This document shows positions 1 to 41,726 of a stretch of 64,000 nt of DNA, in pieces. The notes under the pieces are model-generated. The model searched no databases and was not told the DNA's origin. It saw nothing but the letters and a program-made list of their open reading frames with translations. The position numbers were made by a program, and so were the translations under genes. The DNA lies in NCBI GenBank assembly GCA_035292445.1, contig DATDQB010000013.1, positions 82,132 to 146,131 of the forward strand, written 5' to 3'. The stretch comes from Candidatus Omnitrophota bacterium (GTDB lineage: Bacteria; Omnitrophota; Gorgyraeia; Zapsychrales; Zapsychraceae). Position 1 is the first letter of the stretch, and each line of letters opens with the position of its first letter.

Positions 1-3000
1 AGCATCCACACCTTTGACTTGCCTGTAGCTTCATCATACACAACGGTAAATTCCATATCCTGAACGTCGCGCCTGTTTTCCTCCAAATAAGCACCGATAA
101 GCCGGATATGTTTGGCCACCTCCAATAAACGTTCCATCAACCGATCGAAATTCAGGATTTCTTCCTTCCCTAAACTGCCATCGACAACTGCCTCTCCTTG
201 GGCATTGAAAGCAAAATCGATATTAAACTCTTTTGTCCCATCCCCCATGTCTCTGGTATGGGCAACACCTGTACCGGAATAATCGTTCAGATTTCCCAAA
301 ACCATTGATTGAATAGTAACGGCCGAACGTCCTTGTTCCGCCGTTAAGGGCGGATCCTGATTTGCTCTATAAACAATGGCCCGTTCATTATTGCTTGATC
401 TCATAACGGCCACAACCGCCCCTACCACCTGCTCATCAATATCCTGTGGAAACTCCAAACCTCTATCAGCCAATATCTGCTTAAACGTTCTAATAAGTTC
501 TTTTTGGGCTTCGACAGAAAGTCGGCTCTGATTCGATACCCCTTCTCTTTCAAGCATCCTTTCTTTCACCAACTTAAAATTGACCGGACTATTATCAACT
601 TCTTCTTCGATACCTAAGACCGTTTGACCGTACATTTCAATAGCGCGGGCATAACTTCCCCAGGCGCTTCTCTCATTGGTCGCTTCAACCAAAGCTTCAA
701 CCGTTTCATCGTTAAGACCTAAATTTAAGACCGTTTCCATCATGCCCGGCATGGACTCTGGGGCCCCGGAACGGACAGAAACGAGATGAGGAATGCCTTC
801 TCCCTTTCTAGCCCCCCACACCGTTCCCATGGACTGCGCTTGAACTCGAACAAGTTGTTTAATACGTTCTACAAGTTCGGATGATAATTTTCCTGTCTCA
901 CCCTCCTCAAAATGTAGCGTCTGCTCTGTGGCTACCGTCCCGGCCAGAGGAACGCTAATCGGATATTTACCGGCTAAAACATCTTCTCTTGTAATGCCAA
1001 ATCTTGCTAACCATGCCGGATCATCGGCATGGGCCTTTTGCCACTCTAAAAATGCTCTTGCATCATCATGGGCCATTTCAGCTAAATTGGCGCCCTTTCC
1101 TCCCAATACCATCTTCATTTTCACATTCCCTTTAGGCAGCTGGCGATCGATATCGGCGCCATAGTTGCCAACAAAATAAATCGGCGGATGCTCATCCCCC
1201 TCGAACGCCTCGGTGCCGGCGAGCATAGCGGAATCTTCCGGAACAAAAGCGCTCAAGCTCACCCCAATGGGCAACCCCCGCTTGTTCGGCCAAAGCATGG
1301 GTTCTCTGGTGGTCTTCAAACCGGCAAGAACAACTGCCAAATGATATTCTTCGTAAGGCAATATATACTGACCAGGCCAATGCGTTCCCTGATAGGCCGG
1401 AGCCAGCGTCTGCTCCAGCGCCATGGGTTGATTGATATCATTAGGAACCTCCTCAACCAATTGGTTAGCGCGCGGCTTGTGCAGCTCCAAAAGCCGCATG
1501 TGGTAATTCGGCCTGCCGGGTTCTTTTTCTATCCATCGCCTGAGGAAATTAATGAAATCAGCGGCAACCACATAACCAGGGAGCAAACGTCCCTGCGGTT
1601 CATCATCGCTGTACGAACCCTCAAATTGGGAAATGACCAACTGTGTCAACATCTCTTCATCGGAAGGAATATCATTTTCTTTTATGCCCAACTTTAATAA
1701 CGCTGCCGTTAAACGCGAGCGATCAACGGATTGAACGGCGCGACGAATAATTTCTCTGGCCTGATCTCTATCCTTTATTTTTAAACGTCTTTCATGAGGA
1801 ATAAACTCCTCGGTGTGGACAAAATCATCTTTGTCATAACCGCTAAGACCTATGGCATCCAATCGAGCCTTTAAATCCTCATTAAAATCTTCCGGGTCCG
1901 TAACATCGGCCCACATCACAATAACATGCAGCCCCTCAATGCCATCAAACTCCGCCATGGTGTCACGTTCCCGCCCCAAGGCCGCTTCATTGAAATCGGA
2001 AACCACAACCACCAACGGATGCGTTTTCAGATTCTTTCCGCGATCGGTGTACTTAAGAATATAACGGGTAACATCCCTTGCCAATTGAGCATCTCCGGAT
2101 CCCATATTGAAGAACCCGACAGACTGTTTATTTAAAGGTGTATTGTGATAAAGGTCGCGCACAAAGGTAAGAATACCGTCTTTAGTAATCTCTCCCGTCT
2201 CTTCATCAAATTCTCCCATATACGCATGATGCGCGCCGGAGGAACCCCAGATATCTTTGACCCGCCCGAATCGTCCCATGTGTTCATCGCTGTTTAGATT
2301 CAGCCGATTGGGATCACCGAACAAAAAATCCTCGAGATGAGCATCAATCAATGAATAAGCATCTGTCACGCCGTAAGAAGTGACTTTATCAAAAAAGGCT
2401 CTTCCCTTGTCTGTCAGGCTTACGAGTTGTTTATCAGCTTTAACAAGACCCTGCGCGTGCAGAAGCCGGAAAGCCTCATAAATAAAACCTTTGTTAAACT
2501 GTGCCGGCAGACGATCAAAAAAGAGATACCCGTTTTCATCAAACAACTCAAGAATGGAAGGGCCGATCTTGCTGATGATCCGATTTTCTATATTAAAAAA
2601 AGGCATCCCTAAAGAAACCATGACAGGGCTCATGAGCATTCCAATAAAATAGGAATGGATATGAATCAGGCCGCGCTGCAGGACAGGCATGGGCAACTGC
2701 GAAGAAAGCTTGGGTAAAACGATTTTGACCATTTCTAAATCTTGTTGATCCAACTCACTGGCAAGAATATTAAATATTTCAGAATATTCACTGTAATTTT
2801 TCTTCTTTAAGCGTTCAATAACACGTGTATATCTTTCGACCTTATCAACCAACTCTATAAATTCATCGTACGCCTTATGCACATCATCGCCTTTCCTTAT
2901 TGGCGGCCCCCGGCGAAAATAATCATGATATTCCAAAGCATTGGCTATGGCCCCATCAAAGGTTTCTAAATAACCCACTTTCGCCAGCTCGACCATCAAC

Positions 3001-4793
3001 CATCCCAAGTCCGTCAAGGCGACCTGTGTATCTTCATAGGCTGGTTTCATGCGCACAAGCCCCAAATGGGCCATATTCTCAAAAGCGCCGTAGATGTAAG
3101 CAAGATTTTCCTCACGGCCCTGGACCACTTCTTTGATCGAAACAAATCGGGAAGATCCGGGTTGGCCAAAACGGCTATCAAAGATTCCTTGTTGAGCCAG
3201 CGTATGCACGATGGGAACGCCTTTTTGCCCGTTGATATGCCGGAATAACGGATAAAGAACGTCCCTGGCCTGACTGATATTAACCCTGCCATCCAGGGCA
3301 ATACCCAGGCGGTCATGACGGCGTTGGGCCTCCCGAAGAGACATCAGTATGCCATCGATCTGGCGCTGTAAACGATCCCAATCTTCTCTTTCGCTTTCTT
3401 TATCAACTGTTGAAATGTCTCGTTGTAATCGAGTCAACCGACCACTTAACTCTCGAACCTCTCGTCCCATCCGCTCATGTTCCGCGACTAAAGTTACATA
3501 GGGCGCTGTCCTTAAGTTTTCATCGGCCGTCGCTTGAACCGTCATGGCATTGTCCAATTGAATATAAGGACCCGCCCTCAACGCTTCATACTCAGTCAAG
3601 TCTGGACGTACGCCTAAGAGCCCTACCGTAATACTATGAATGGACCCGTGGGCCAGCTGAGCGGCATCTGCCGGTGTCAGCTCTTCCACGCCAATAGGCG
3701 TGATTTCAGGCACAATCTTTGCCCCACCGGAGAAATACTTTCTGGGAATGATCTCTTGAGTGGCCGGGTCGTAATCTTCTTTGATAAAATCGTACACGCC
3801 TTTTTGGAAGGCCTGGAGATACTGCTCGTAAATTTTCTGCTTGGCCTGCGGGTCATCCGTATCAACGCCTTTGGTCTTGTTCTGATCGACATAAACTTTG
3901 GAAAGAATACTTTCTTTGAGAGTTTCCTTGTACCACGTGGCCAGAATGACGGCGTTATAGATCTGGCGCAAACCGGCGAAGGTCTTGCCCTCATTGATCT
4001 CTTTCTCGATCTCAGGAAGAACAATTTCTCGCATAATTTGAGTCATCAGTCGTCGGTCATCAGTCGTCAGATTTTCATGCGTTGACTGAAGACTGATGTC
4101 TGATGTCTGATGACTGATAGCTAAATAATCCTCTTCCAACATGACCTTCAGATGGCTGGCAACGATATAAGCGCTGCCTTGATGCTCCAAGACAACAGCC
4201 TTGTCCGGCACGATCCACACCTTGTTAAAAGTATTCATCGGGATGTCGGTCGTGCCGAATTTCTCAAAAGCTTTTTTGTGGACGCGTTTCCAGAATTCTT
4301 TGCCTAAATCATCTTCCGGATAGATCAGGGAAGCCGTCAGCTGTTTTAAAAGATAATCCTGACTCAAAAGATCGCGGCCCATTTCGGTGACACCGAAGGA
4401 TTCCGGAACAATACGACCTTTTTCGTAAGGTGAGAGATTAACCCAAAGCTCATCTTCCGGAACCGTTAAGGAGGCCAGAAAATATTTAATCAATCTGCTC
4501 GCTTCAACCCGCAAGGCTTCGCCCTCCAGGTTTTCATCGCCTGTATCAACAATAAAATCGAATTCAAGAGGATTGGTAGGATTCGGCGTGATGCCTTTAA
4601 TCAGAGCGGGCGTAAATCCGGGGCTTAGGGCGACCATGGTTCCGGGTGCTGGCAAGCTGAACATCCCCGGCGCGGGTAGAGATTGCGCAAAGGCCGTTGG
4701 CGGCGGAATAATAGCGCTTAAAAGAAAGCTGGCGCAAATGAAAGCGCAGAAAAGACGGTAAGCTAAAGATTTTTTGTATTGTGGATGAAACAT
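1..4793 (-). CDS. Giant multi-module secreted protein, paralog A. Start codon at 4793; ORF leaves the window at nt 1 (more than 1597 aa here). Signal peptide, conserved N-module, unknown middle module, then a pyruvate,phosphate dikinase-like module (nt ~1245 to 1 and beyond).
   Basis: Hand translation of the minus strand from ATG at 4793 gives MFHPQYKKSLAYRLFCAFICASFLLSAIIPPPTAFAQ-SLPAPGMFSLPAPGTMVAL..., then a block closely matching the N-termini of the 5097..12530, 14589..27587 and 27900..31268 ORFs (TVPEDELWVNLSPYEK, TEMGRDLLSQDYLLKQLTASLIYPE, NTFNKVWIVPDKA, PEIEKEINEGKTFAGLRQIYNAVILATWYK, IPRKYFSGG). I saw no in-frame stop down to nt 1. The ORF track omits it because its stop lies outside the window. 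The downstream module carries PPDK hallmarks: MVLGGKGANLAEM, HLVSVRSGAPESMPGMMETVLNLGLND, AIVYRANQDPPLTAEQ, GTGVAHTRDMGDG, DMEFTVVYDE. A Shine-Dalgarno-like AAGGGCAGGA lies upstream of the ATG. Confidence 0.75.
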   Translation of the reverse strand, partial: MFHPQYKKSLAYRLFCAFICASFLLSAIIPPPTAFAQSLPAPGMFSLPAPGTMVALSPGFTPALIKGITPNPTNPLEFDFIVDTGDENLEGEALRVEASRLIKYFLASLTVPEDELWVNLSPYEKGRIVPESFGVTEMGRDLLSQDYLLKQLTASLIYPEDDLGKEFWKRVHKKAFEKFGTTDIPMNTFNKVWIVPDKAVVLEHQGSAYIVASHLKVMLEEDYLAISHQTSDISLQSTHENLTTDDRRLMTQIMREIVLPEIEKEINEGKTFAGLRQIYNAVILATWYKETLKESILSKVYVDQNKTKGVDTDDPQAKQKIYEQYLQAFQKGVYDFIKEDYDPATQEIIPRKYFSGGAKIVPEITPIGVEELTPADAAQLAHGSIHSITVGLLGVRPDLTEYEALRAGPYIQLDNAMTVQATADENLRTAPYVTLVAEHERMGREVRELSGRLTRLQRDISTVDKESEREDWDRLQRQIDGILMSLREAQRRHDRLGIALDGRVNISQARDVLYPLFRHINGQKGVPIVHTLAQQGIFDSRFGQPGSSRFVSIKEVVQGREENLAYIYGAFENMAHLGLVRMKPAYEDTQVALTDLGWLMVELAKVGYLETFDGAIANALEYHDYFRRGPPIRKGDDVHKAYDEFIELVDKVERYTRVIERLKKKNYSEYSEIFNILASELDQQDLEMVKIVLPKLSSQLPMPVLQRGLIHIHSYFIGMLMSPVMVSLGMPFFNIENRIISKIGPSILELFDENGYLFFDRLPAQFNKGFIYEAFRLLHAQGLVKADKQLVSLTDKGRAFFDKVTSYGVTDAYSLIDAHLEDFLFGDPNRLNLNSDEHMGRFGRVKDIWGSSGAHHAYMGEFDEETGEITKDGILTFVRDLYHNTPLNKQSVGFFNMGSGDAQLARDVTRYILKYTDRGKNLKTHPLVVVVSDFNEAALGRERDTMAEFDGIEGLHVIVMWADVTDPEDFNEDLKARLDAIGLSGYDKDDFVHTEEFIPHERRLKIKDRDQAREIIRRAVQSVDRSRLTAALLKLGIKENDIPSDEEMLTQLVISQFEGSYSDDEPQGRLLPGYVVAADFINFLRRWIEKEPGRPNYHMRLLELHKPRANQLVEEVPNDINQPMALEQTLAPAYQGTHWPGQYILPYEEYHLAVVLAGLKTTREPMLWPNKRGLPIGVSLSAFVPEDSAMLAGTEAFEGDEHPPIYFVGNYGADIDRQLPKGNVKMKMVLGGKGANLAEMAHDDARAFLEWQKAHADDPAWLARFGITREDVLAGKYPISVPLAGTVATEQTLHFEEGETGKLSSELVERIKQLVRVQAQSMGTVWGARKGEGIPHLVSVRSGAPESMPGMMETVLNLGLNDETVEALVEATNERSAWGSYARAIEMYGQTVLGIEEEVDNSPVNFKLVKERMLEREGVSNQSRLSVEAQKELIRTFKQILADRGLEFPQDIDEQVVGAVVAVMRSSNNERAIVYRANQDPPLTAEQGRSAVTIQSMVLGNLNDYSGTGVAHTRDMGDGTKEFNIDFAFNAQGEAVVDGSLGKEEILNFDRLMERLLEVAKHIRLIGAYLEENRRDVQDMEFTVVYDEATGKSKVWM

Positions 4794-5096: not shown

Positions 5097-8000
5097 TTAA
5101 TTCAAGAGGCTGACCTTTTCAGGTTCTTTGGCTTGGACGTCAGGATTCAATCCAAATTCGTTTTCCTCTTCTTCCCCGCCCAATCCCAACAATAACGGCA
5201 GGTTCGTGACCGGTGTCACGTTAATGATGATGGGAATAAAGCCTTCGATGTGCATCTGTTGGATGGGCTGCTGGTTCATCGGCAGCGGAATGCCTTTGTC
5301 ATCGCGTTTAATTTGCAAATCTAAAAGTGCGGGGTTCAGATCGATACCACCGACCGGCCCCTGGTCTTGCGCCAACTGGGCGCCATCGGCTGGGCCTATA
5401 GCTCCTTCAACAGCACCTTTTAATTGAACAATAGTAAACGGCTTCGCCAAAATACCCAAATAATCTGAGGAACCCGCTACTTCGGCAGAAGGCGCTCCTT
5501 CATAATAACCGGACATGAGCTGCACCTTGATGCCGGGATGATTCCTGACAACATGGTCTGCCAGACTAAATCCGGTTTCATCCGGCATCACAATATCCGA
5601 TAAGACTAACACAAATTCCTGCTGAGATAATTGCTCTCTTGCTTCGGCGGCACTGGAAACAACCGTTACTTGATAACCAGCTCGCTCCAAAATCCGTCGG
5701 GCTACATTGCCCACAGATGCTTCATCATCCACCACGAGAACCCGCCGTGTTACCATCGCATTATCACCGTGGACGAAATCAGCTTCTATAAACCCACGTA
5801 ACGTTTCGCCGAAGGCTTCATCTTTTGAAATGACCCGCTTGATATCACCGGGCGACGCGGCTTGACGGTACAATTCCTTGGATGCTGTATCCCCAGCCCC
5901 AAAATCTCCAGACATCAAGATGACCGGAATATTGGGGAAATTAACATCCGCGACCCTTAGATCTGCCAGCGCTCTCGTTAATGCTATACCGCTGATCCGC
6001 GGCATGTTCAGATCTGTTAATATACCTGCAAAACGTGTCGGATTAGCTCGAATAATATCTAAGGCTATTTTCCCATCTTGGGCAACAACAACTCGGTAAC
6101 CCAGGCCTTCTAACATCTCTTTAAAATCTTCTCTTAAACCCGCATTGTCCTCGACAAGCAAAATCTCGCCCGTCACCATGGCTTGATCGGCGGATCCGAA
6201 GACTTCAGCGGCCATGGCCGAATCTCCAGAAACACTTCTTTGATTTCCGTCTCGATCAAAATAATAAAAATGCGTTTGTTGCCTCACATCTATTATAAAG
6301 ACAATAGGATAAACAAAAGCCCTGCCGCCAACATGACTGACATAAAATTCCCGCCTCTCGTTCACGGCCCTTAAAACACCCTCGCGTTCAACAAGAATGG
6401 AATCCGGAATCACGGCTTCCTTCAGAGGAAGCTCTTCCCCTAATTGGGCCAATATAACGCCCATTTTCTTGACCATTTCAGAATAAGCTTTAACGATAAA
6501 TCGAATATTGAGTAATTCGACCGGCCTTCTTAAAACAGAAAGATTCGCTTCCGTAACGTTCTGGATATCCATCGACTCTAACTCTCGCGTTGCTTCACTG
6601 ATGGTGGTGAGCAATTCATCGTCCTGAATTTGCGCATCCAGGGCGATATCTGACACTTTAGTGTAAACATTTTCTATCGATGATTTCTGCGCCCCCCTAT
6701 CTCCTCTGGTTTGACCGCGTAAAACTCTATCAGCCGCGATGTATTGTTTCATAATATCCGCGAACCTTAACAATTGTTCTCTTACTTCCGGGACGTCTTG
6801 AACACCGACGCCATAAAATGTAGCGCGAAGCTTCCTCGCCCGCTCAAAATCTTGGTCCCCTATCATCGCCGCGTCAGCCACTTGCGAGTCTGTCGAGACG
6901 TCGCTTGATAAAGCTTCTAATTGTGTTTCGACCATAGGAATATATTTAGTAATATCGGTTGCACTTAATAATAAAACCTGTGCTTGTAAAGCTAACCTTT
7001 CAGCTAATCCAAAATTCTGCGACTTTTGTTCAGCTATCCCTTCTTTCGTGACATTCGATGTGATCTGCGTATAAAATCGGATCGCTTGAGAAGTTCCTGA
7101 AGGGCGGATAGTGATATGATTTCTGCTATTAGTAAACGGGACCCCTGGCTCCAACGCTTCATCATCAAGAAAGAATCTAATGCCTTCATCCGGAAAACCT
7201 TCATAATGCTGAGCGTCATAACGCCCGGATTTGAATTCGACCGCGCCAATAATTCTTTGGCCAGATAAGACCCAAGGATTATCGGTTTGCGCCCGCGCAT
7301 TCGCTTCTTGCATCCATTCTTGAGCCTTCCTTAATAATTTAATTTTCTCCGTAATACCTTCAGCGCCTTCGAACGAGCCCACACGGGGCAAAGGCTTATT
7401 GGCTGTTGCATAATGACCGATCTGCATATAAATATCATCCAATAATTCGAATATCATTGTGCCCCGTTCTTTGGCGTAAGCTGCCACCTCTAACGCCAGG
7501 ATACCCGCAAAAACACCGTCTTTATCATTAACATGCCCGTCATCGGCTAAGATCTCTCCTTCGGCAACTGGCCCCCCCATAATGGAATAACCATTGGACT
7601 CTTCCTGCGATCCCTCATTGGTTAAACCCCGTTCACGCATCCTTTCAGCATACTGAGCTTGATACGTCATTCCCACCCATGCACGACGGCCGCTTAGATA
7701 ATCTCCCCTGTTCTCTTTTCCTGTCACATCCAACATCTCTCCGAGAGCTTGAACCCCGAACAAAGCCGCCACTTCCTCGATAGCATCTGTTGTAACATGG
7801 CTTAAACTAACAAAATGCTGCTGGGGATTCTCTAATAATCCCAGTTCTTTCTTTCTCATAAGCCTATACCATGTTAACAATGTCCAAAGATCATTTGCCG
7901 ACAATAAGCGATATTTGCCGAATAACTGCTGTTGGCTCTCAGGTACTTTGACAATCAGCCCTAAACGATCCGCATCGGGATCCGTTCCGATCAAGACATC

Positions 8001-11000
8001 TAACTGATCGAAAGCTTCCTGGCCATGCTCGGCTATAAATTCTTTTACAGCAATGTCCGCCGAAATCGAATCGCCGGGATCAGGCTGTTCTCCCCAACCA
8101 AAAGCCGGGAACAACCCGTCCAATTCCTGTAATTTTGAAATGACTTTATAATCCGTAAAACCTAACTCGGACAACAATCTGGGAACCGCTTTATTGCCCG
8201 ATCCGTTAAATGCCGAAAAGCCGATTCTTAAATTACCCGCTTGTTTTTGAACAACATCATTATCAATAATAAATTTTTTGACCTGCTCCGCATGCAACGT
8301 ATGCATGTCAATTAAATTGCCCGGCCTGCTGACATCAACTCCTTTATAATCCTTACCGTCAACGGGTGTTGCTCCGCCCAGCCATATTAATCGGCCCTCA
8401 CCAGCTTCTTCTAATGCTTTTAACTTGATATCAGCTACCGTTGTAGCATTGATAGCTTTTAAAACTTCATTCTTCATGCTTTGGGGTAACTGGGCTCCCG
8501 TGTTGTTGGTAATTTTATATCCATTGTACTGGCTTGGATTATGGCTGGCTGAGATAAGAATGCCGATATCCGCCCGAACAGCTTGTGTTGTGACACCAAA
8601 AGATAATTCCGGGAACGGGCTTGCTTCATCAAACAAATAAACAGTAAATGGATAATCCTCGCTAGACTGCCCAATAAAACTTTGTGCGATCATCTCGGCA
8701 AACTGCTCACCGGCGATCCGGCTGTCAAAGCCAATGGCGACTTTATGAAATCCGTTTGCTTTCATGTAATTGATGACACCCGCGGTGTATCGTAAAAGAA
8801 CAATATCATTGATCGTATTCGGCCCCTTCAGGATACCTGCGCCGGGCCCATAGGTTTTAAGCTCACGTAATTCATCCTCCGTTAACGCCGCTAATCCCCG
8901 AATACCAGCGGTTCCGAAGACGATATTTTGCCGAAACACTTCAACTAAATCCTTCCATCGCTCTTCCTGTATCGCTTTCAGTATTGCCACCTGTGTTTGT
9001 GGAGAAATCCTCTCGATATCAGGATTCGTTGCCCAAGCTTGGAGGTTGGGAAATGTTTCAGCAAGGGCTTTATTGAATATTTCATCGGTGATCCTTCCTT
9101 CACTATGTTGTTCTCTTAAGTAGTCCTCAATGCTACCTTTTGCAGAAGCAACCACCGAATTTCGACTCACCAGCATTGCGCGATCGGGTGAAAAGATCTC
9201 AACCTCACCTTGCTGATCAATCTTTAGACTGATATTTCTTAGAATCAATCTCCCATCATCGGTTTTCTCAAAAATACCTGCATATCGAGCATCATTAAGG
9301 TCAACTATTTCTTTAAATTCACTGGCAATCGTGACACTCCCTTCCAAGACCGCTCTTTGTAAATGCACCCGGCCGGCGATGCTTAATTCATCCAAATTCG
9401 TCATATCCGTGCCATCTAAAGCCCGAATGGCATTTTCCACATCCTCATAATACGGATCCATTGCTCCAAACCCCGGAAGATGCGGCGCGGCATTGTTGAC
9501 TAAAACACCGTTTGCGGCATCCACGCTAAAATGACCGGTGTGCGCATAAAGAATATGATCAAACGCGTATTTGGTCGGGGTAAAAAAATTGGTACGGTTT
9601 TGCGGGTCAACATTAACCATATAAAGAAGCCGCTTAAAACCATATTTGTTGTCCTCCAACAAAGCGCGCACCCTCTCGTCATCGGTCGTAGTCACAAAAG
9701 CATTTAAATTTAAAAGAGCCGAACCCATGGCTCCCTCCAACTGTTTAACGCTTCGCCCCTCTTTTATTTTTGAATTACCAATCAAATCAGGCGTAACAAT
9801 CTCATTAAATTTCTCGCGGCCGATAATCTCCAACAAATCTTTTAAGAAAGGCTGAAGCACGCTGTAATTCATAACAGCGACATTGGTATTAAAAAGCTGT
9901 CCGCCAGGCTCTCCTTGCGTTAAACCCATCTCATAAAACAGCTGTTTTTGCTCGTCAGTCACTTGAGCTAATTCAAGGATTTGCGGTGCCGACTTGCCAT
10001 TAGGCAGCACTTGCCGGCCCAATTGTCCTCCCTTTTTATCCAACGGCGTTTTAGTGGTTGTAATCATAACAATAGGGATTTTATTAGTGACCATCCAGCC
10101 AATAATATAATTGTCGGGAACATTGTTGACCCCATCACCGTTATAAACGCTGCGGATTAACGCTTGGCCGTCTGTTGGTAAATCGACCGTTAAAGCGTCC
10201 TGTAAGGCCATTGAACCTAATTGCCCATGCCCGCCCGGTGCCGTAAAATCAGTGGTTAGCTCACCCGTTTCGATATCGATGACGGGTAATGAAGCCTGTT
10301 CAATCATGCGTTGGCCAAGTTCTATGCCCGGCGTTTCCTCAATCACCTGACGATAAGTTCTTCTTTGCGAAGCGGGAATAGATTGGTCGATACGGTCAAA
10401 TAGATAAATCGTTTCACCAAGAAAATGCGTCATTGGGCCGATACTCTCTTCATTAACCAACTCTTGAATAACCAAATTGGCGAATTGACCCTGTTGGGCG
10501 GCTTTAATGGCTCGAATATATTTTAATTCTGTGATGCTGACCAATTCCGTAACTGTTATGGGTTGGCCGCTTTCATCATGTCCTTGCATCTGCACTTCAA
10601 AGAATAAATCCATTGATTTGGCGCCTAACTGAGACCGTCCCGTAAGTCGCAGTAAATAATCTTTGCGTTTAACGCTCGTTCCCAAACCACCATCCATCGG
10701 ATTGGCCAAAACAATTGATTGCGCCGCGGCTTGTGCGTAGGCAGGGTTATCAGCAATTTGCGTCGTATAGCCCATTTCCCCTAATTCTTCTTTTCTTTGA
10801 TCAGAAGTCAATAAAGCAGATGGAAAAAAATTACCGCCAATCTTCAATGATTGCTCTTGTTGTGAAGAGCTTTTCGAGCGGACATATTTAGCGTAAAGAC
10901 CCGCCATATAGGAACGATCGAACCCAGCCAGGCCTAATGGGGCAACAAAGGCTTCAAATTCGGCTAGTGAAAGCATCGCCCGGTCGGTAGGAGCGCTGGC

Positions 11001-12530
11001 CTGCAATCTCTCTCTGGCCCGGCCGAGCCTTAATATATCGTTGGCAAACTGGGTAAGCTTTTCCCTGGCCTGTCTTCTGACCTGGGCATTCCCTTCACGT
11101 GTGTCTCTTTCGGCTAGCAGGGCGGCGGCTTCGATCCTGGCGGTTAATCCATCGATTTCTTCAAGGTTATAACGGTTCTCTCTTAGACCCCGCCGCTCCT
11201 GTTGTGTTAAAGTATTATCTGCCAACATCGACTGGTCGGAACCAATAGTAGCCATAGCTCCCGTTGCCCTTTGTGCCTCGGCAACACCGTTTATTCCGAC
11301 CTCGTTCAAGGCAACCGTTACGCGCTCTGTTTCTCCGTGGTCAACCACGGCGGCAACAAAATCCGTAACTCTGCCGCGCTGCTCTGGCCTTAAAACCTCC
11401 TGGCTTGCTTTAATACTCTCGAAACTCATCATCGCCCGGTCAATAACGTATCCGCCGGAGAAATATTTGCGCGGGATCACCTCTTGGGTGGCGGGGTCGT
11501 AATCTTCCTTGATATATTCATAAACGCCTGTCTTGAACGCTTCCAGATATTGGCTGTAAATCTTCTCTTTAATGGACTTATCCTCAATATCGATGCCGAC
11601 AATTTTGTTCTGGTCGACATACACTTGGCCCAAGAGGGATTCTTTCAGATTCTCCTTGAACCAGATCGCAAGAAGCAACGAATTCGTGATCTGTCTTAAG
11701 GCGGCAAAGGTCTTGCCTTCATTGACTTCCTTTTCAATTTCGGGGATCAAGACCTCGCGAACGACCTGGGAGCTGACCTCATTAATGGCCTCGACATCTT
11801 TGTTGGCCAGCATGTCGGTGCCGAACTTTTCGCTGCCGATATTCTCCTGTAACGCAACGTAATCCTCTTCCAGCATGACGCGCATGTGGCTTTCGATGAC
11901 ATACGCCGTTCCCTGATGTTCATAAATGGTCGCTTTATCCGGCAGGATCCAAACTTTATTGAAGGTGTTAACAGGAATATCTTTTGTCCCGTACAACTCA
12001 AAAGCCTTCTTGTAAACACGATCCCAGAACTCTTTGCCCAAGTCTTTTTCCGGATAGATCAATGAAGCGGTCAATTGTTTCAAGATATAATCTTGGGCCA
12101 AAAGATCGCGGCCCATCTCCGTTTGGCCGAATTTTTCCGAGATGATCCGGTTCTTTTCATAAGGGGAAAGGTTGACCCACAGCTCATCTTCGGGAACCGT
12201 TAAGGAGGCCATGAAATATTTGATGAGCTTGTTGGCCTCCATGCGTAACTCTTCGCCTTCTATCTTGTCATCACCTGTATTGACCAAAAAATCGAATTGC
12301 AAAGGATTTTCGGGATTAAGCGTTAGACCGATGATCATGGCAGGCGTATAACCCGGGCTCACGGAAACCATTGTTCCGGGTGCGGGAAGATTCAAAATGG
12401 TTTGCGGATTGATCTGGGCGAAACTGGCTTGCGGCGGAAGAATGAGGCTTGAAATAAATGAAGCGGAAATAAGAACCGAAAGGAGCTTTCTTAAAAATGA
12501 ATTTTCGCAGGTATGCAGGTACTTAAACAT
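5097..12530 (-). CDS. Giant multi-module secreted protein, paralog B (2477 aa): signal peptide, conserved N-module, UDP-sugar pyrophosphorylase-like module, phosphohexomutase module, unknown module, two CheY-like receiver domains, conserved C-module.
   Basis: A 7.4 kb uninterrupted ORF. The N-terminus MFKYLHTCENSFLRKLLSVLISASFISSLILPPQASFAQ looks like a signal peptide. UDPGP-like motifs: NPMDGGLGTSVKRKDY and ITTTKTPLDKKGGQL. Alpha-D-phosphohexomutase motifs: IVFGTAGIRG and SASHNPSQYNGYK. Two REC domains: EILLVEDNAG...ILTDLNMP...VILMSGD and RRVLVVDDEAS...VLSDIVMPDETG...KVQLMSGY. The C-terminus is VGGIDLNPALLDLQIKRDDKGIPLP...GFIPIIINVTPVTNLPLLLG. Confidence 0.85.
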   Translation of the reverse strand: MFKYLHTCENSFLRKLLSVLISASFISSLILPPQASFAQINPQTILNLPAPGTMVSVSPGYTPAMIIGLTLNPENPLQFDFLVNTGDDKIEGEELRMEANKLIKYFMASLTVPEDELWVNLSPYEKNRIISEKFGQTEMGRDLLAQDYILKQLTASLIYPEKDLGKEFWDRVYKKAFELYGTKDIPVNTFNKVWILPDKATIYEHQGTAYVIESHMRVMLEEDYVALQENIGSEKFGTDMLANKDVEAINEVSSQVVREVLIPEIEKEVNEGKTFAALRQITNSLLLAIWFKENLKESLLGQVYVDQNKIVGIDIEDKSIKEKIYSQYLEAFKTGVYEYIKEDYDPATQEVIPRKYFSGGYVIDRAMMSFESIKASQEVLRPEQRGRVTDFVAAVVDHGETERVTVALNEVGINGVAEAQRATGAMATIGSDQSMLADNTLTQQERRGLRENRYNLEEIDGLTARIEAAALLAERDTREGNAQVRRQAREKLTQFANDILRLGRARERLQASAPTDRAMLSLAEFEAFVAPLGLAGFDRSYMAGLYAKYVRSKSSSQQEQSLKIGGNFFPSALLTSDQRKEELGEMGYTTQIADNPAYAQAAAQSIVLANPMDGGLGTSVKRKDYLLRLTGRSQLGAKSMDLFFEVQMQGHDESGQPITVTELVSITELKYIRAIKAAQQGQFANLVIQELVNEESIGPMTHFLGETIYLFDRIDQSIPASQRRTYRQVIEETPGIELGQRMIEQASLPVIDIETGELTTDFTAPGGHGQLGSMALQDALTVDLPTDGQALIRSVYNGDGVNNVPDNYIIGWMVTNKIPIVMITTTKTPLDKKGGQLGRQVLPNGKSAPQILELAQVTDEQKQLFYEMGLTQGEPGGQLFNTNVAVMNYSVLQPFLKDLLEIIGREKFNEIVTPDLIGNSKIKEGRSVKQLEGAMGSALLNLNAFVTTTDDERVRALLEDNKYGFKRLLYMVNVDPQNRTNFFTPTKYAFDHILYAHTGHFSVDAANGVLVNNAAPHLPGFGAMDPYYEDVENAIRALDGTDMTNLDELSIAGRVHLQRAVLEGSVTIASEFKEIVDLNDARYAGIFEKTDDGRLILRNISLKIDQQGEVEIFSPDRAMLVSRNSVVASAKGSIEDYLREQHSEGRITDEIFNKALAETFPNLQAWATNPDIERISPQTQVAILKAIQEERWKDLVEVFRQNIVFGTAGIRGLAALTEDELRELKTYGPGAGILKGPNTINDIVLLRYTAGVINYMKANGFHKVAIGFDSRIAGEQFAEMIAQSFIGQSSEDYPFTVYLFDEASPFPELSFGVTTQAVRADIGILISASHNPSQYNGYKITNNTGAQLPQSMKNEVLKAINATTVADIKLKALEEAGEGRLIWLGGATPVDGKDYKGVDVSRPGNLIDMHTLHAEQVKKFIIDNDVVQKQAGNLRIGFSAFNGSGNKAVPRLLSELGFTDYKVISKLQELDGLFPAFGWGEQPDPGDSISADIAVKEFIAEHGQEAFDQLDVLIGTDPDADRLGLIVKVPESQQQLFGKYRLLSANDLWTLLTWYRLMRKKELGLLENPQQHFVSLSHVTTDAIEEVAALFGVQALGEMLDVTGKENRGDYLSGRRAWVGMTYQAQYAERMRERGLTNEGSQEESNGYSIMGGPVAEGEILADDGHVNDKDGVFAGILALEVAAYAKERGTMIFELLDDIYMQIGHYATANKPLPRVGSFEGAEGITEKIKLLRKAQEWMQEANARAQTDNPWVLSGQRIIGAVEFKSGRYDAQHYEGFPDEGIRFFLDDEALEPGVPFTNSRNHITIRPSGTSQAIRFYTQITSNVTKEGIAEQKSQNFGLAERLALQAQVLLLSATDITKYIPMVETQLEALSSDVSTDSQVADAAMIGDQDFERARKLRATFYGVGVQDVPEVREQLLRFADIMKQYIAADRVLRGQTRGDRGAQKSSIENVYTKVSDIALDAQIQDDELLTTISEATRELESMDIQNVTEANLSVLRRPVELLNIRFIVKAYSEMVKKMGVILAQLGEELPLKEAVIPDSILVEREGVLRAVNERREFYVSHVGGRAFVYPIVFIIDVRQQTHFYYFDRDGNQRSVSGDSAMAAEVFGSADQAMVTGEILLVEDNAGLREDFKEMLEGLGYRVVVAQDGKIALDIIRANPTRFAGILTDLNMPRISGIALTRALADLRVADVNFPNIPVILMSGDFGAGDTASKELYRQAASPGDIKRVISKDEAFGETLRGFIEADFVHGDNAMVTRRVLVVDDEASVGNVARRILERAGYQVTVVSSAAEAREQLSQQEFVLVLSDIVMPDETGFSLADHVVRNHPGIKVQLMSGYYEGAPSAEVAGSSDYLGILAKPFTIVQLKGAVEGAIGPADGAQLAQDQGPVGGIDLNPALLDLQIKRDDKGIPLPMNQQPIQQMHIEGFIPIIINVTPVTNLPLLLGLGGEEEENEFGLNPDVQAKEPEKVSLLN

Positions 12531-13086: not shown

Positions 13087-14058
13087 ATGAAGATAAAACC
13101 CATCTATCGATTCTTTATATGGCTCGCCTTCATCGGCCTCGTTATCCTGGCCTTCCTGGCCTATTACTTCCAGAACCATGAAAAAGACCTCTTCCTTGCC
13201 GCCCTGCGGTCTTCTCTCGACCAAGGCATCAGCGCTTCCGATGTCGATTATGATTTCCCCTTCGGGTTCAGCTTGGATGACTTCCAGATCGAAGGCGTCG
13301 TTCAGGCAAAAAAATTAAGCGCCCAGCTTGACCCGCGTTCTTTCATAGAAAAAAAGATCATCCTTAGCCAGATGACCCTTCACCAGCCTATTATCACCTG
13401 GCGTAAAGAAAAAAAGGCGGCCGCTATCGCGGAAAATCAAAATGTTTCCAACGGGCCTTCGGTTGGCACCCCGAAAACGATCCCCCAGGAGGCATCAAAA
13501 CTTATTATCAAGCAGCTGCGCATAAAAAACGGCCGTTTCCATTTTGCCGATGAATCGGCCATCCCGGCCCTTTCCTTTAAGCTGGATAATCTCCAGATGA
13601 AAATCGAAGACCTTATTTTTCCGCTGTCTCCAACGGCAACCACCTTTCAATTGAAAGCCAATCTGATCAAAGAAAACGCCCCGGTTTCGGGCAGCGTTGT
13701 GCAAAGTAACGGCTGGATCGATCTGGCCAAAAAAGACCTGGATGGAACTCTTCTTATCATTGAATCGGACGGTAAGACCGGCTTAAGCGCCCATGCGATC
13801 TCAAAAAACAACGATTTAAACGTCGAAGGCAAGATCAAGGCGCAAAACTTGTTCAAACAGTCCGGCGAAAATCCATTGGAGACGACTGTGGATAATATCG
13901 TCCTTAACACCTTATCGAATATGGGCATCGAGATCGGTGCAAGTTTTTCCTTTAATACCAAACTCGATGATTTTCGCATCGAACAGATCTCTTTCTCAGG
14001 AAGCGTCTCCACTCATGAGGTTCCCGCAACCGAGCCGATGAATCCTGTTGCGCCGTAG
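13087..14058 (+). CDS. Membrane protein with an AsmA-family-like N-terminal region (323 aa): one N-terminal TM helix, then a periplasmic beta-rich region.
   Basis: The N-terminus MKIKPIYRFFIWLAFIGLVILAFLAYYF is a single TM helix. The architecture resembles the start of the 1033-aa AsmA-like protein at 31606. The gene is on the opposite strand to the giant genes and sits just after the tRNA-Arg pair. Confidence 0.55.
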   Translation: MKIKPIYRFFIWLAFIGLVILAFLAYYFQNHEKDLFLAALRSSLDQGISASDVDYDFPFGFSLDDFQIEGVVQAKKLSAQLDPRSFIEKKIILSQMTLHQPIITWRKEKKAAAIAENQNVSNGPSVGTPKTIPQEASKLIIKQLRIKNGRFHFADESAIPALSFKLDNLQMKIEDLIFPLSPTATTFQLKANLIKENAPVSGSVVQSNGWIDLAKKDLDGTLLIIESDGKTGLSAHAISKNNDLNVEGKIKAQNLFKQSGENPLETTVDNIVLNTLSNMGIEIGASFSFNTKLDDFRIEQISFSGSVSTHEVPATEPMNPVAP

Positions 14059-14588: not shown

Positions 14589-17500
14589 TTATCCTTTAAA
14601 TATCGCTATCCTATCCAACACATCCCTCAGCGTGAACTTGCGCATCGAAAGCGCTGGCGCTTTCTCTTCCTCATCCTGTGCCTGCTCGATCGGTTCATCC
14701 GGAATAAAATCTGCGATTCCCAACAGCATCGGCATATTATTGATCGGCGCGATGTTAATGATCACGGGAATAAACCCGTCAATATGAATATTTTGCAGCG
14801 GTTGCATCTCAACCGGCAGCGGAATGCCGCGGCCGTCGCGCTTAATTTGCAGGTTAAGAAGCGCCGGGTTCAAATCAATACCGCCGACCGGCGTTGTTTC
14901 TTGAGCTGTTACAGCTCTATCAATGCCGGCCGATGATGAGACGTCCTCTTCCTCTGAAGGAAAGTTGACAATTAATTGACCTTCCAAAAATTCACGGATA
15001 ATCCTTCTAAATTTAATCTCCCGCACCTTAAAATCTCTTGCCGAGTTTATGTGGGTTGCTCTTGTCAGATCTCCTTTTGAATAAAGATCCGGCGCATCTT
15101 CGCTTAGCGGGGTGCTCAATTCTTTACCATCAAGATAATGGATCAACCGGGCGAGGAGCCCGACGCGATCGCCAAATAATTCTTCATCGCCCATTTCTTC
15201 CAGTAAATCCTCGGCGATCTCCCAAGCTTCCGCAGGCGTCAGCATCGCGCCGTCGCCCTGCTCCGTCATGGCGGCATCGATGCTGACAATTGTATGATCG
15301 ACTTCCACCGGGAAGATCTCGGCTTTCAGTTCATTTCCAACGTTATAAATCTTAATCACCACGGATGTTTGGCCGCCTTCCGTTGCCTGCGTTCCAGTTT
15401 GACCAAAAACCCAATCATTGGCTATGACAGTAAAAATACCAACAACATCGCCTTTTACATCTTGTTCCGTAAAAAATTTTTGCCCATTAAGAATTGCTCC
15501 GGCATCACCATAGCTTTCCCGTATAACACGAAGCTCGGATGCCTCAGCTAACTTAAAATTATAGCGTTCGGAAAGGTCAGGCAATTCTTCTCCAGCAGCG
15601 TTTTTATTCATTTTGGCGTTATAAACCCGAACCCCGGCCACAGCGCCGATATATTTTGCGGCACCGGCAATCGCTAAGTTCATAAATCCTTCGGCCGAAC
15701 CGCCAACGGTTATAACTGTTTTGTGGACACCATAAGAACGCCCTGTTGCGGCCTCATAAAGAGCCGGTGTTAACGTCGCCCTTAACCCATGTGCAACAGT
15801 TCCATCCTGAAGCGTCTTTTGAACAACGCTCACACCTTGTATTCCATATTCTTGCTTAACCTCTTCAATGGCTCGTACAAAAGCAGTTTCTCGTTTACGG
15901 TTCATCACGATAATCTCTTCCTGAACTTGCGAGAGTTCTTGTCTACGAATAGCGGCCAAAAACTTAAGGTACGCCAAAATGCCTTCTTTAGGGTGAGCCG
16001 CATATAATTCAGGATCGTAAAGATGGTATTTTTCCCCACCCACTTCAACAGCGGCTGCCCTTAACGCGTCGGCATCTTCACCCACATTCGTAATAAACTG
16101 ATGAACGTATCCATCGGGGACGTTTCCTAAATCGCGCACACCGCGCCCGACAACAATATCGCTATTGGCTCCCGCCTCATTTTCCGGAGCTTCCTCCAAG
16201 GATCTGTTGCCAGAATTGGTGACAAACTGATTAGTCCCTTCGACCACGTCGATAATGGCATCAAGAATCGGATAATACCGGCCATTTTCGCTTAGGTAGA
16301 ATTCATCGCCACGGTCAATGGCCGCTTTAATGGCTTCGACTTCGTGTTGGATCAAGTTAGGCATAATGACTTCATTGGATTTTAAGCTTTCCGCCACTTC
16401 ATCCCGGCCGAAACCTTCGGAAACACGAACCATCATAATGATACCCAGTTCTTTGATAGTCCGTTCAAAAATCCTTTTGGCGAAACCATCGACCACATCT
16501 GTAATGGCCGTTTGCATTCTTTTTAATTCATCTTTGGCAATGGTTCCTTCTTTCCCCAAAACCATTATTGCTACTTCCGCAAATTCGCCCCTTTGCGTCG
16601 TTTGATGAAGTTGAGTAAATAACAATGCGATCTGCGTCCGCTGCTCAGATGTATCAGAGACACTTTTAACAACATCTAAAATTTTTTGATAAGCACCTCG
16701 TAAACCAAGAGCGGTTAATTTGGCGGCCGTGTGTGTTGTCAATATAACAGGCAACTCATCACGAATGGCGCGTAATCTCGTTGCTTCTTCTTTGTTTGGC
16801 TGTGCCGCCATCGCGGCGTCAAAATCCCTAATCATCTGCCCTAACTGTTCATTATCAATGTTGACCTGGACCATCCGGCCATAAACATCAACACGGGCAA
16901 CGAAGGCCTCAACGCCGATGCGCTCAATTAACGCATCGTACTCATCCATGACACCTAAGCTGGCTGCCTGGATCCTGAAGGAGGCGCGGACGAACTCGTT
17001 CTGCGCCGCTTGTTCGTTAACAAAATCCCCATTAAGGACCGTTAAAGCGGTCTCCTTGGAAGCCCTAGAGAAGGAAGCAGCATAGCGCCAAGGCGCTCCC
17101 ACCCGCTTCGCTTCTTTCACAATGGCATTTAAATTGCGGGCCGCCTGATCAGCGGTCTGCCCCCCTGATAAAAAGACAATCGTGCCTAATTCCGGAGGAA
17201 GACTATCCATATGCACGGCAACAGTCGCTCTAGCCACTTCTTCGGGTGTATCTTTAGGCGCTTTATCACCCGAGGTGACCATGCTCACTTTAATCGCGCT
17301 GCCTTTCAAATCAACCCCTAGGCGGCTGGCGGCTTCCGTATAAACCTTAAGAATACGCCTGTTCGCCTCTGCGCTGGCTTCAATATCATGAGAGCCTTTA
17401 ATCAACACCTCTGGCTCAGGCGTTGGGACCCTTCCTAATAACTGAACATCTAAAACATGTTGGGCCAACATCTCCATATTCGCTTCGATATTACGTTGCG

Positions 17501-31514: not shown

Positions 31515-31605
31515 TTATATTTTTTGAATAGTGGCGCTTAGTATATCATTGGGTTTTGAAATTTGCAATTACTGTAAAATTACCCACTTATGCTATAATA
31601 CCGCC

Positions 31606-34600: not shown

Positions 34601-34632
34601 GGATTGGGAGTATTTTGGAGGAAATATTTTAG
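31606..34632 (+). CDS. AsmA-family outer-membrane biogenesis protein (TamB/YhdP-like): N-terminal TM anchor plus a long periplasmic beta-rich domain.
   Basis: The 1033-aa ORF at 31531..34632 likely starts at the internal ATG 31606 (MRKRIIFILLSLLMLGTIAFFYVQNILIPIK), because 31531 abuts tRNA-Pro. It has a single N-terminal TM helix, then the repetitive Ser/Thr/Asn/Gly-rich beta-strand pattern typical of the AsmA family. Confidence 0.6.
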   Translation: MRKRIIFILLSLLMLGTIAFFYVQNILIPIKVKQFIEEKAQDYLKRKIEIADIQFKPFQGFRFINIKIYEKDAPETLFFFADEVRFQILFAAFFQHKTLIVPSLQLVKPTLHLTRDETGAWNIADLLNLKQAKDERMEYTFFVRKFILEKATADYADHSKDTKFFESYENIDLDAAISFDRSIHYEIAVDLPIRKARLKSTGTIAAATKKISAQLALDNFPLSDYVSLLTNDQNLTMKDTFVTTPDLTMNYQNNSLDIKASLKFPSFFLKYADGQISGPFDITNANFKHENNVLYLSGTFSSAQAVFKKSNLFLSSPLSLTLKALSLKNKEIKMLADLTLNNAQFSWSENKSVRGQLMIQDIRLDKAQSSSLTWQKAVLESAELIYEDRLTFKGNLLMDKLSLTHQSDDLSIDVPFRITKADCAVGEDKIIHSDVLARKFQGRIKGRKLYIDTLVDLPNMEILFGQFQRFLGSPNIELHTILDLGQITPPLYKGSVTLSDVLLEGMKPVGDITRLTGKVSFDNDVFSSEQLSFRALDSDFHASGQWFNSQNPTADIQLSTDKIDLSQLAKVYPPLKEDYQLIPSGPAAIAASYQGPLSPFSAGYLMLESQLTGAHLVWQKGNKKFSDVSGRLTLGNDQLIWKNLTFAVDGQTYKMEGSLSRLKTPIIETTIQNEQLDAKTILAYMDQSFRVDSLKGRYLSSSFNLSGEFGFNRNVRLEGDGVLNLEDLAASPGPLSQHIKTLHPLGSLMWKGSFLGNAGDWKTSAVNVSAQTKAMRLFHYPIDNVNINFKQKNQSVHALLMTASVYEGPLNIEANIDLSKDGAPFQSTTSLADMNLTAYRKDKKTKNVHLSGKLTCEFNLKGELLDQPSYQGIGYFAITEAYLGQLVPQLNEAIYTEANADFVIKNRKIITENAMIISKTVDLLAQGWVDFDKNIDLDITPALKQIQRIDTGSIKIDPATFLTQAVSLKMTGTLDNPIKKINTSASKVFKNTTGVIKEGIGSILEEIF

Positions 34633-41608: not shown

Positions 41609-41726
41609 AATAGTACTATTCAAATTAATATTTATGGAAAGTAGTGCCCCTATTTTTATACAAGGAAAGAAAACTGTCAAGCTTCATTTAAGAATCCCCC
41701 TTTAAAACGCCTTTAATCCGAGCGGT

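Follow-up and report, generated by a model that had tools for sequence, protein, structure and literature searches.

We describe gene B, a gene of a Candidatus Omnitrophota bacterium that joins two complete enzyme modules of nucleotide-sugar metabolism, a UDP-sugar pyrophosphorylase of the UDPGP family and an alpha-D-phosphohexomutase (PGM), in one polypeptide that looks exported. The gene lies in a stretch of 64,000 nucleotides (nt) of contig DATDQB010000013.1 (assembly GCA_035292445.1, positions 82,132 to 146,131), the whole of which was analysed and is here called the window; coordinates are window positions. It is one unbroken open reading frame (ORF) on the minus strand, at 5097-12530, and encodes 2477 amino acids (aa). 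We lean towards reading its product as an exported, cysteine-free carrier protein that delivers an active pair of phosphohexomutase and UDP-sugar pyrophosphorylase, held between two conserved ends that are found together in many other Omnitrophota proteins.

Two complete enzyme modules in one reading frame

The translation divides into the parts below, with the limits of the enzyme modules set at aa 519-1118 and 1119-1888 on account of their homology to full-length stand-alone enzymes.

5097-12530, minus strand: gene B, modular protein of 2477 aa (ORF and translation); stop codon at 5097-5099
12417-12530, minus strand: signal peptide, aa 1-38, with a basic n-region, an 18-aa hydrophobic core and the putative cleavage site PPQASFA↓Q (hydropathy scan)
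11433-12416, minus strand: conserved N-terminal domain (N-domain), aa 39-366
10977-11432, minus strand: two spacers, aa 367-518, without a recognisable domain; D-x-[AS]-M at aa 364, 432 and 516
9177-10976, minus strand: UDPGP module of the type of UDP-glucose pyrophosphorylase A (UGPase-A), aa 519-1118 (Pfam, homology, profile and AlphaFold2 (AF2) model)
6867-9176, minus strand: long-form PGM module, aa 1119-1888 (Pfam, homology and invariant motifs)
6180-6866, minus strand: module of unknown function, aa 1889-2117, delimited by D-x-A-M motifs
5757-6179, minus strand: receiver domain REC1, aa 2118-2258 (Pfam Response_reg)
5352-5756, minus strand: canonical receiver domain REC2, aa 2259-2393 (Pfam Response_reg)
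5100-5351, minus strand: conserved C-terminal tail (C-tail), aa 2394-2477, GGIDLNPALLDLQIKRD...GFIPIIINVTPVTNLPLLLG with an acidic end (family search)

Both enzyme modules are real and complete, as the original prediction from the sequence had held: their Pfam matches exceed the gathering scores, stand-alone enzymes match them end to end, every catalytic loop of both is intact, and the motifs that it quoted stand where it had placed them. Its range of 7300-10750 located the modules correctly but was too narrow, as they occupy 6867-10976 and the IRPSGTS loop at 7089-7109 falls outside it. The spacers gave no significant match in a Pfam search, and the module at aa 1889-2117 had no match in Pfam or NCBIfam. 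The same 2477-aa product is encoded identically on four independently assembled contigs, the longest of 149 kb, so an assembly artefact is unlikely. Its close homologues all come from metagenome-assembled genomes (MAGs) of Omnitrophota, which marks the organism as an uncultured member of the phylum.

A pyrophosphorylase of a bacterial clade

Two motifs of the UDPGP family had drawn attention to the first enzyme module.

10656-10703, minus strand: NPMDGGLGTSVKRKDY, UDPGP motif, aa 610-625
10020-10064, minus strand: ITTTKTPLDKKGGQL, UDPGP motif, aa 823-837

As predicted, PF01704 (UDPGP) matches gene B above its curated threshold, with an E-value (E) of 1.4e-13 for the whole protein and 8e-15 for the module alone (54.9 bits against a cut-off of 22). 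A 566-aa query around the module matched 73 proteins, the best of them over its whole length at 40-63% identity. Most relatives are stand-alone proteins of about 600 aa, annotated in MAGs of Omnitrophota, Elusimicrobia and Deltaproteobacteria; whether stand-alone or modules within other large proteins, the relatives that match at 33-56% identity over the full length are bacterial, mostly from Omnitrophota, and the bacterial homologues score 89-567 bits at 30-63% identity across the full 600 aa. Eukaryotic UGPases of solved structure, by contrast, reach the single sequence at about 25 bits and 17-19% identity. The grouping with eukaryotic UGP/UAP1 that had been considered is therefore not what the comparison returns.

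Kinship of fold is nevertheless evident at the level of profiles and models. The family profile of the module reaches UGPase structures at E 1e-26 to 1e-19, in alignments that cover the nucleotide-binding loop, the catalytic core and the C-terminal beta-helix. An AF2 model built on the family alignment (predicted local distance difference test (pLDDT) 95.1) has A. thaliana UGPase 2icy as its best Foldseek match (E 1.8e-25, target-normalised template modelling (TM) score 0.76-0.79, 18-19% identity), with UAP1/AGX and USP matching it less well (TM about 0.4-0.5). From model, Foldseek and profile, the module appears to have the three-part UGPase fold of an N-terminal domain, a Rossmann-like core and a C-terminal left-handed beta-helix, and the modelled fold is UGPase-A-like rather than UAP1-like.

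The columns that are invariant in 52 family members are catalytic and substrate-binding positions, and gene B keeps all of them. They comprise the Gly of GGLGT, the Lys of LGAK, PGGHG, NGDG, D-K-KGG (DKKGG), E..Q, FNTN, QLEGA and FTPTK, with G97, K120, G248-G249-H250, N279, D313, K315-G316-G317, N363-T364-N365 and K469 (module numbering) among the invariant residues, and the corresponding motifs of 1z90 and 2i5k line up with them. Set against the eukaryote-type UGPase-A enzymes as a group (A. thaliana 2icy/1z90, yeast Ugp1p 2i5k, human UGP2 3r2w and Leishmania 2oef), the module is predicted to have the same fold, C-terminal beta-helix included, and has in common with them the GGLGT loop, PGGHG, N-x-D, D-x-KGG, E..AQ, FNTN, QLE.A.G and F.P.K. 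It differs in its 17-19% identity, in being about 130 residues longer (an N-terminal helical extension and insertions), in belonging to a bacterial clade and in being one module of a predicted exported polyprotein.

In a neighbour-joining tree of the bacterial copies, which has no eukaryotic outgroup and no support values, gene B groups with the copies of two loci, L004 and L025, and with a giant-protein copy (L010); the other embedded copies form the sister of this group, and a clade of stand-alone Omnitrophota proteins is sister to the two combined. Sequence and model together mark the module as a UGPase-A-type enzyme whose clade is bacterial and centred on Omnitrophota, not as a eukaryotic import. 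NCBIfam equivalogs gave no match to it, and its sugar specificity is not readable from the sequence.

Some relatives of the module stand out for other reasons. A 969-aa fragment, P0042, has a UDPGP module followed by a region with FFAGAATRLGKG, which resembles the nucleotide-binding loop of a different sugar nucleotidyltransferase, and may be a tandem of two pyrophosphorylases. Four UDPGP homologues outside the family to which gene B belongs (P0001, P0002, P0019 and P0022) have N-terminal signal-peptide-like segments of their own, so exported proteins may have recruited the enzyme repeatedly.

A long-form phosphohexomutase

The second enzyme module follows directly and carries the loops of its superfamily.

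8895-8924, minus strand: IVFGTAGIRG, aa 1203-1212
8514-8552, minus strand: SASHNPSQYNGYK, PGM active-site motif, aa 1327-1339
aa 1327-1332, minus strand: SASHNP phosphoserine loop (motif scan)
aa 1515-1522, minus strand: GTDPDADR metal loop (motif scan)
7089-7109, minus strand: IRPSGTS phosphate-binding loop

Of the four Pfam families expected here (PF02878/PF02879/PF02880/PF00408), PGM_PMM_I (E 9.8e-23 for the whole protein, 1e-23 for the module) and PGM_PMM_II (1.5e-10 and 1.6e-10) match above threshold, whereas PGM_PMM_IV is marginal (E 0.1) and PGM_PMM_III is undetected in gene B; the matching catalytic loops are present, and PGM_PMM_III is detected in several close homologues of the module. 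Stand-alone proteins of about 740 aa from many phyla, among them Rhodocaloribacter, Zixibacteria, Latescibacteria, Gemmatimonadetes and Phycisphaerae, align with the module at about 40% identity over about 95% of its length, and Omnitrophota copies at 55-71%.

The motifs that are invariant in 31 family members (FGTAGIRG, SASHN, DPDADR, E-x-S-x-G, H..DKDG and RPSGT) are all kept in gene B, down to D399, D401, D403 and R404 of the metal loop, E525, S527 and G529 of the sugar loop and R691, S693, G694 and T695 of the phosphate loop; its sugar-binding loop reads EESNG and its phosphate-binding loop IRPSGTS. In a profile-to-PDB comparison the nearest solved structures were the archaeal and Thermus phospho-sugar mutases 1wqa, 1tuo and 2f7l. 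The four-domain logic of the alpha-D-phosphohexomutases (PGM/PMM/GlmM), with their phosphoserine, metal, sugar and phosphate loops, appears to be kept. Characterised enzymes of the superfamily, however, have 450-580 aa, and by its sequence gene B's module is a phosphohexomutase of an uncharacterised long subfamily of about 740 aa found in many phyla. All NCBIfam equivalog scores lie far under their cut-offs, and the sugar preference is not assignable.

The two enzymes recur together

If both modules work as their motifs suggest, the pair would interconvert hexose-6-phosphate, hexose-1-phosphate and UDP-hexose, with UTP or pyrophosphate. This two-step logic, already part of the original prediction, is coherent, and it is reinforced by the recurrence of both modules together in other genomes. 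A profile scan of GTDB genomes with a narrow alignment found the UDPGP module alone, as proteins of 594-675 aa, and also in several composite proteins. Between the same conserved ends as in gene B it stands with PGM, in the order N-domain, UDPGP, PGM and tail (L004/L025), with PGK (L021) or with a receiver domain (L029); in a further locus (L012) the order is reversed, as PGM, PGK and UDPGP. As the association is repeated and differently ordered, it supports a functional link between UDPGP and PGM. The module also occurs inside ORFs that run past the ends of the 18-22-kb loci retrieved, with several copies in Candidatus Velamenicoccus archaeovorus LiM.

In that strain (L016 and L022; NZ_CP019384.1, about 84-116 kb), at least two to three UDPGP modules lie in an ORF that passes both ends of a 22-kb locus. 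It is the sole Omnitrophota strain among the UDPGP matches that is not a MAG, and V. archaeovorus is a predator enriched with Methanosaeta (PMC10066038).

Gene B also carries two copies of Response_reg (PF00072; E 1.7e-31 for the protein), which the original prediction did not mention. REC1 has the acidic pair, the acceptor Asp (ILTDLNMP) and the Ser, followed by an atypical K-D, with Asp after the Lys instead of Pro. In REC2 the match at aa 2264-2374 spans profile positions 1-110 of 111, and the DD pair, the acceptor Asp (LSDIVMP), the Ser (LMSG) and the K-P (AKPF) are all kept. Neither a partner kinase nor an output domain was found for the two.

A family of proteins with conserved ends

Genes A, B, C and D lie close together on the same strand. 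They have their first approximately 366 residues in common, and their C-tails are homologous, though divergent in C.

14589-27587, minus strand: paralog A (4332 aa), which has the signal peptide, N-domain and C-tail seen in gene B and carries malate synthase, isocitrate lyase and class-I aldolase among its cargo (translation, Pfam)
27900-31268, minus strand: paralog C (1122 aa), which shares signal peptide and N-domain with gene B but has a divergent C-tail (translation, Pfam)
1-4793, minus strand: paralog D, N-terminal 1597 aa of a 4030-aa protein that leaves the window, with the same N-domain; cargo includes pyruvate phosphate dikinase (PPDK) (translation)

The cargo of paralog C, about 650 aa, has no Pfam match. 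The full gene of paralog D, on contig L001, matches Methyltransf_36, PPDK_N and PEP-utilizers in Pfam, and its C-tail (P0314) is the best match of the tail search. Tandem arrays of genes with these book-ends recur in L004/L025 and L021.

Beyond the window, over 1300 homologues match the N-domain of about 330 aa at 55-70% identity; almost all are from Omnitrophota, and they carry no annotation. A search with the 84-aa C-tail returned 2384 representative clusters at E<=1e-3, of which 761 reach E<=1e-10. Among the matches listed, the tail is near the C-terminus in every one, in proteins of up to 5808 aa, and 56 of the 62 tail matches of at least 900 aa also have the N-domain, at aa ~35-360. Cargo families recognised by Pfam in 27 family members were PGM (in 5), UDPGP (2), REC (2), PGI, PGK, CofD-like, GT5 starch synthase and NDK. 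The C-tail itself has no match at E<=1 in Pfam or E<=0.1 in NCBIfam. Known C-terminal sorting signals (the C-terminal domain of type IX secretion, PEP-CTERM and similar) were rejected for it, since no model matches and the tail ends acidic, not basic. Its hydrophobic stretch is also unlikely to be a membrane anchor: it is proline- and polar-rich, acidic residues come after it, and paralog C has polar residues in its place. By its sequence features, gene B fits this family, with an A-x-A↓Q signal peptide, the N-domain, a GGIDLN tail and a nearly cysteine-free mature chain. In the literature searched we found no description of the book-ended family, of its cysteine depletion or of the D-x-A-M motif.

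Other genes of the neighbourhood may be mentioned here. On the opposite strand, DUF748/AsmA/YhdP-like genes lie between paralogs B and A (13087-14058, plus strand) and just past paralog C (31531-34632, plus strand), and a homologue of the small DUF748 protein also follows the tandem book-ended array in L004 and L025; the DUF748/AsmA-like protein may be an envelope-spanning partner. At 28-30 kb from gene B, a secretin (Secretin_N and Secretin; 40049-41680, minus strand) adjoins an Rce1-like CAAX-type intramembrane protease fused to TPR (41727-43037, minus strand), a candidate channel and processing protease that nothing ties to the family.

A predicted export signal and depletion of cysteine

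Among complete N-termini of the N-domain family, 39 of 44 have an A-x-A↓Q site, with Ala at -1 and Gln at +1 in all 39 and a mostly small residue at -3, preceded by basic residues and a hydrophobic core of about 18 residues. A hydropathy scan of gene B finds hydrophobic stretches in the signal peptide and the tail only.

The composition of these proteins is equally distinctive. Not one of the 2437 residues in the mature chain of gene B is a cysteine, and paralogs C and D have none after the signal peptide; paralog A has two in about 4290 mature residues (aa 2395 and 2398), both in the isocitrate lyase motif GCKMCGH. Cysteine makes up 0.027% of the 118,839 residues in the 62 tail-bearing family proteins. 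The corresponding values are 1.27% in ten housekeeping proteins of the same window, pooled, 0.81% in stand-alone long-PGM relatives (median), 0.34% in stand-alone UDPGP relatives and 0.11-0.74% in the ORFs that leave both locus ends (0.67% in the V. archaeovorus copy and about 0.7% in the V. archaeovorus-type ORFs L018, L022 and L024). As a rule, bacterial proteins that are exported from the cytoplasm in an unfolded state contain little cysteine. That cysteines survive only in the isocitrate lyase motif argues for selection on the cargo enzymes for catalysis. The earlier statement that gene B is secreted has support in its signal peptide, in the lack of internal hydrophobic segments and in the cysteine-free chain; it looks exported, a conclusion that is supported but not proven.

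Short motifs divide the modules

The modules of gene B are separated by copies of a short motif, D-x-[A/S]-M.

9174-9185, minus strand: D-R-A-M between UDPGP and PGM, aa 1116-1119
11430-11441, 11226-11237, 10974-10985, 6864-6875, 6213-6224, 6177-6188 and 5754-5765, minus strand: the other seven D-x-[AS]-M copies

The 8 copies in gene B compare with 0.5 expected by shuffling (16-fold), and the 15 in the 4332-aa paralog A with 1.2 expected. In gene B they fall at the borders of every module, and in global alignments the stretches between them match stand-alone homologues end to end: PGM relatives of about 740 aa start at the motif's Met, and UDPGP relatives of about 600 aa end a few residues from the next motif. 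We considered internal translation starts at these Met codons and rejected them, finding no Shine-Dalgarno-like sequence in the 18 nt upstream of each. With the Met codons lacking ribosome-binding sites and with variable codons for D and A, selection on the motif acts at the level of the peptide. An ortholog in L004, at 56% identity, has D-x-A-V-L at the same module borders, and the broadened motif D-x-A-[MV]-[LVMAIT] is about 7-fold enriched across 62 family members (161 observed, 21.7 expected); 16 of the 62 have none. The motif could be a cleavage site or a linker.

Paralog A further contains a repeated element of about 55 aa, around aa 1352-1413 and 1875-1935, of the form DRAPELGPR...GE[IL]VPEEPA...IASLRERDQKGTPKEGDAAM. 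Each copy closes with a D-A-A-M motif, and the element resembles a duplicated linker cassette.

Relation to known proteins

Cytoplasm-type enzymes in a protein that looks exported had been seen as an oddity of gene B, but such sugar-phosphate enzymes have already been reported in predicted extracellular parts of Omnitrophota giant proteins. West-Roberts et al. (2023; 10.1101/2023.11.21.568195) described PGM/PMM, aldolase, TPI, PGI, FBPase and PPDK domains there and left the localisation open. Nielsen & Lui (2026; 10.64898/2026.06.07.730766) described "multi-enzyme metabolic clusters" in proteins of at least 10 thousand aa (kaa), with PGM and receiver domains in a sugar-metabolism module and the hypotheses unresolved. 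Secretion and pilus genes flank the giant genes (10.1101/2023.11.21.568195; 10.64898/2026.06.07.730766). UDPGP, book-ends, cysteine depletion, D-x-A-M, polyproteins and cleavage go unmentioned in these two sources (10.1101/2023.11.21.568195 and 10.64898/2026.06.07.730766).

Gene B is a compact form of this known, unexplained trait of the phylum. With the giant proteins, or Archaeovorins, it shares the phylum, kinds of cargo (PGM/PMM, aldolase, PPDK, receivers and GT5 starch synthase, counted over its family) and the paradox that enzymes of cytoplasmic type stand in parts predicted to lie outside the cytoplasm; its UDPGP module is homologous to copies in ORFs that pass the ends of 18-22-kb loci, V. 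archaeovorus included. It differs in its size of only 2.5 kaa, under the 10-kaa cut-off of the catalogue, in having a signal peptide, N-domain and GGIDLN tail and no transmembrane helices, and in being cysteine-free where ORFs leaving both locus ends have 0.11-0.74% cysteine. We rejected its identity as an Archaeovorin or giant membrane-threaded protein, as it has 2477 aa, no HEAT, GT or TPR match in Pfam and no internal hydrophobic stretch.

TpsA exoproteins, autotransporter passengers and MARTX toxins also combine conserved termini with variable cargo. Gene B recalls the first two in its long signal peptide, conserved N-proximal domain, large variable passenger and scarce cysteine, and MARTX toxins in having modules, as these have effectors, divided by short recurring sites that are possibly cut. 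Pfam and NCBIfam searches found no beta-barrel, RTX repeats or cysteine protease domain in gene B, and membership of the TpsA proteins of two-partner secretion (TPS) was rejected, as the N-terminal TPS domain with its beta-helix fold was not seen. The resemblance is one of functional analogy only.

A proposed carrier for working enzymes and its alternatives

The explanation that we favour makes gene B one member of a large, Omnitrophota-centred family of modular carrier proteins that would be exported. A predicted Sec-type signal peptide and the highly conserved 330-aa N-domain open each protein and a GGIDLN tail of about 60-80 aa closes it; between these book-ends stand whole enzymes of cytoplasmic metabolism, with short D-x-A-[M/V] motifs dividing them. 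In gene B the cargo consists of the UGPase-A-type pyrophosphorylase, the long-form phosphohexomutase, the module of unknown function and the two receiver domains, and from the conserved catalytic residues both enzymes are most likely catalytically active. With neither cysteine nor a membrane-spanning segment in its mature chain, the protein most likely leaves the producer's cytoplasm unfolded. The enzymes, perhaps first cut apart at the D-x-A-M sites, would then work where the nucleotides and sugar phosphates of another cell are available, in the cytoplasm of a prey or host or in lysate. Action on another cell's metabolites would reconcile the signs of export with the need for cofactors; for export, activity, sugar specificity, site of action and processing alike, this is what we infer.

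Several observations weigh against this explanation. The export reading draws on our own heuristics (hydropathy and signal motif) and on composition, and most stand-alone UDPGP homologues have no signal peptide. UTP, ATP, acetyl-CoA and phosphodonors for receivers are not expected in the periplasm or outside the cell, and every cargo enzyme needs cytoplasmic cofactors. An N-domain model (pLDDT 69.5) has no match in the PDB and no recognisable fold. No protease, translocator or delivery device could be linked to the family, the neighbouring secretin, Rce1-like/TPR and DUF748 genes offering no functional link. The strict D-x-[AS]-M motif, tried as a universal feature of the family, is absent or at chance level in many relatives.

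Some of the same facts favour a membrane-tethered metabolon on the cytoplasmic side of the producer, in which the N-terminal segment is an uncleaved anchor or goes unused and the enzymes serve the cell's own nucleotide-sugar and glycogen metabolism under receiver control. This, the main rival, would explain a cargo that is purely of cytoplasmic type and dependent on UTP or ATP, the full set of phospho-acceptor residues in REC2 and the lack of signal peptides in most stand-alone homologues, and Nielsen & Lui consider such a location on the cytoplasmic face for those giant proteins that have transmembrane segments only (10.64898/2026.06.07.730766). We think it unlikely all the same. The basic residues, hydrophobic core and strict A-x-A↓Q have the geometry of a cleaved signal and not of an N-out anchor; near-zero cysteine over ~119,000 residues, against 0.3-1.3% in cytoplasmic comparators, is hard to explain for a protein that stays inside; and sorting functions are suggested by the conserved 330-aa domain that adjoins the signal peptide and by the conserved tail that ends the protein. 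It is improbable, too, that the modules have become non-catalytic binders of sugar phosphates or nucleotide sugars, serving as adhesins or cell-surface scaffolds. Extracellular substrates are indeed not obvious, and roles in adhesion and in attack on cell walls have been put forward for the giant proteins of the phylum (PMC10066038; 10.1101/2023.11.21.568195), but the catalytic loops of UDPGP and PGM are all strictly kept, and the only cysteines of paralog A that escaped the family-wide purge lie in the isocitrate lyase signature.

Two further alternatives concern how the gene arose. Bacteria usually use an unrelated enzyme of the GalU type, and all matching solved structures are eukaryotic UGPases, which would fit a recent horizontal acquisition of the UDPGP module from a eukaryote or an archaeon. 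Such an origin is very improbable given bacterial homologues at 89-567 bits against about 25 bits for eukaryotic UGPases, a clade that holds stand-alone genes of Omnitrophota, Elusimicrobia and Deltaproteobacteria besides several V. archaeovorus copies, and the position of gene B inside the Omnitrophota copies in the neighbour-joining tree, which lacks a eukaryotic outgroup and support values. That gene B arose through chimeric assembly, or consists of fused pseudogenes that do not yield a single protein, is scarcely credible. Each module is a whole gene starting at Met, superficially like an operon that lost its stop codons; the same product, however, comes from four contigs of different assemblies, orthologous architectures at 56% identity exist in other genomes, the internal Met codons have no ribosome-binding sites ahead of them, and the purging of cysteine together with the conserved book-ends shows selection on the whole polypeptide.

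Implications

Taken further, the carrier explanation would extend to an export system throughout the Omnitrophota, of which the literature searched gave no description. In it, a cleavable signal peptide and the book-ends would carry whole, active enzymes of central carbon and nucleotide-sugar metabolism as cysteine-free polyproteins; cut at D-x-A-[M/V], these would work in prey or host cells or at their surface and so deliver a metabolic pathway where other systems deliver toxins. We offer this extension tentatively, as a possibility that is more daring than the reading of gene B alone. The enzyme cargo seen here or in relatives comprises UGPase, PGM, PGI, PGK, NDK, glycogen synthase, isocitrate lyase, malate synthase, aldolase and PPDK.

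The book-ended family, at 1-6 kaa against 40-150 kaa for the giants, is compact, and offers a tractable case for asking why ultra-small, probably host-dependent bacteria would export enzymes of cytoplasmic type. The purging of cysteine from all but the active-site motif of isocitrate lyase amounts to a natural experiment that shows which cysteines are indispensable. There is also a consequence for genome interpretation. MAG-based reconstructions of Omnitrophota count Pfam and KEGG matches to PGM, UGPase, isocitrate lyase, malate synthase, aldolase and PPDK as the organism's own metabolism; should many of them turn out to belong to exported carriers, the glyoxylate shunt, gluconeogenesis and glycogen synthesis inferred for these bacteria may be wrong.

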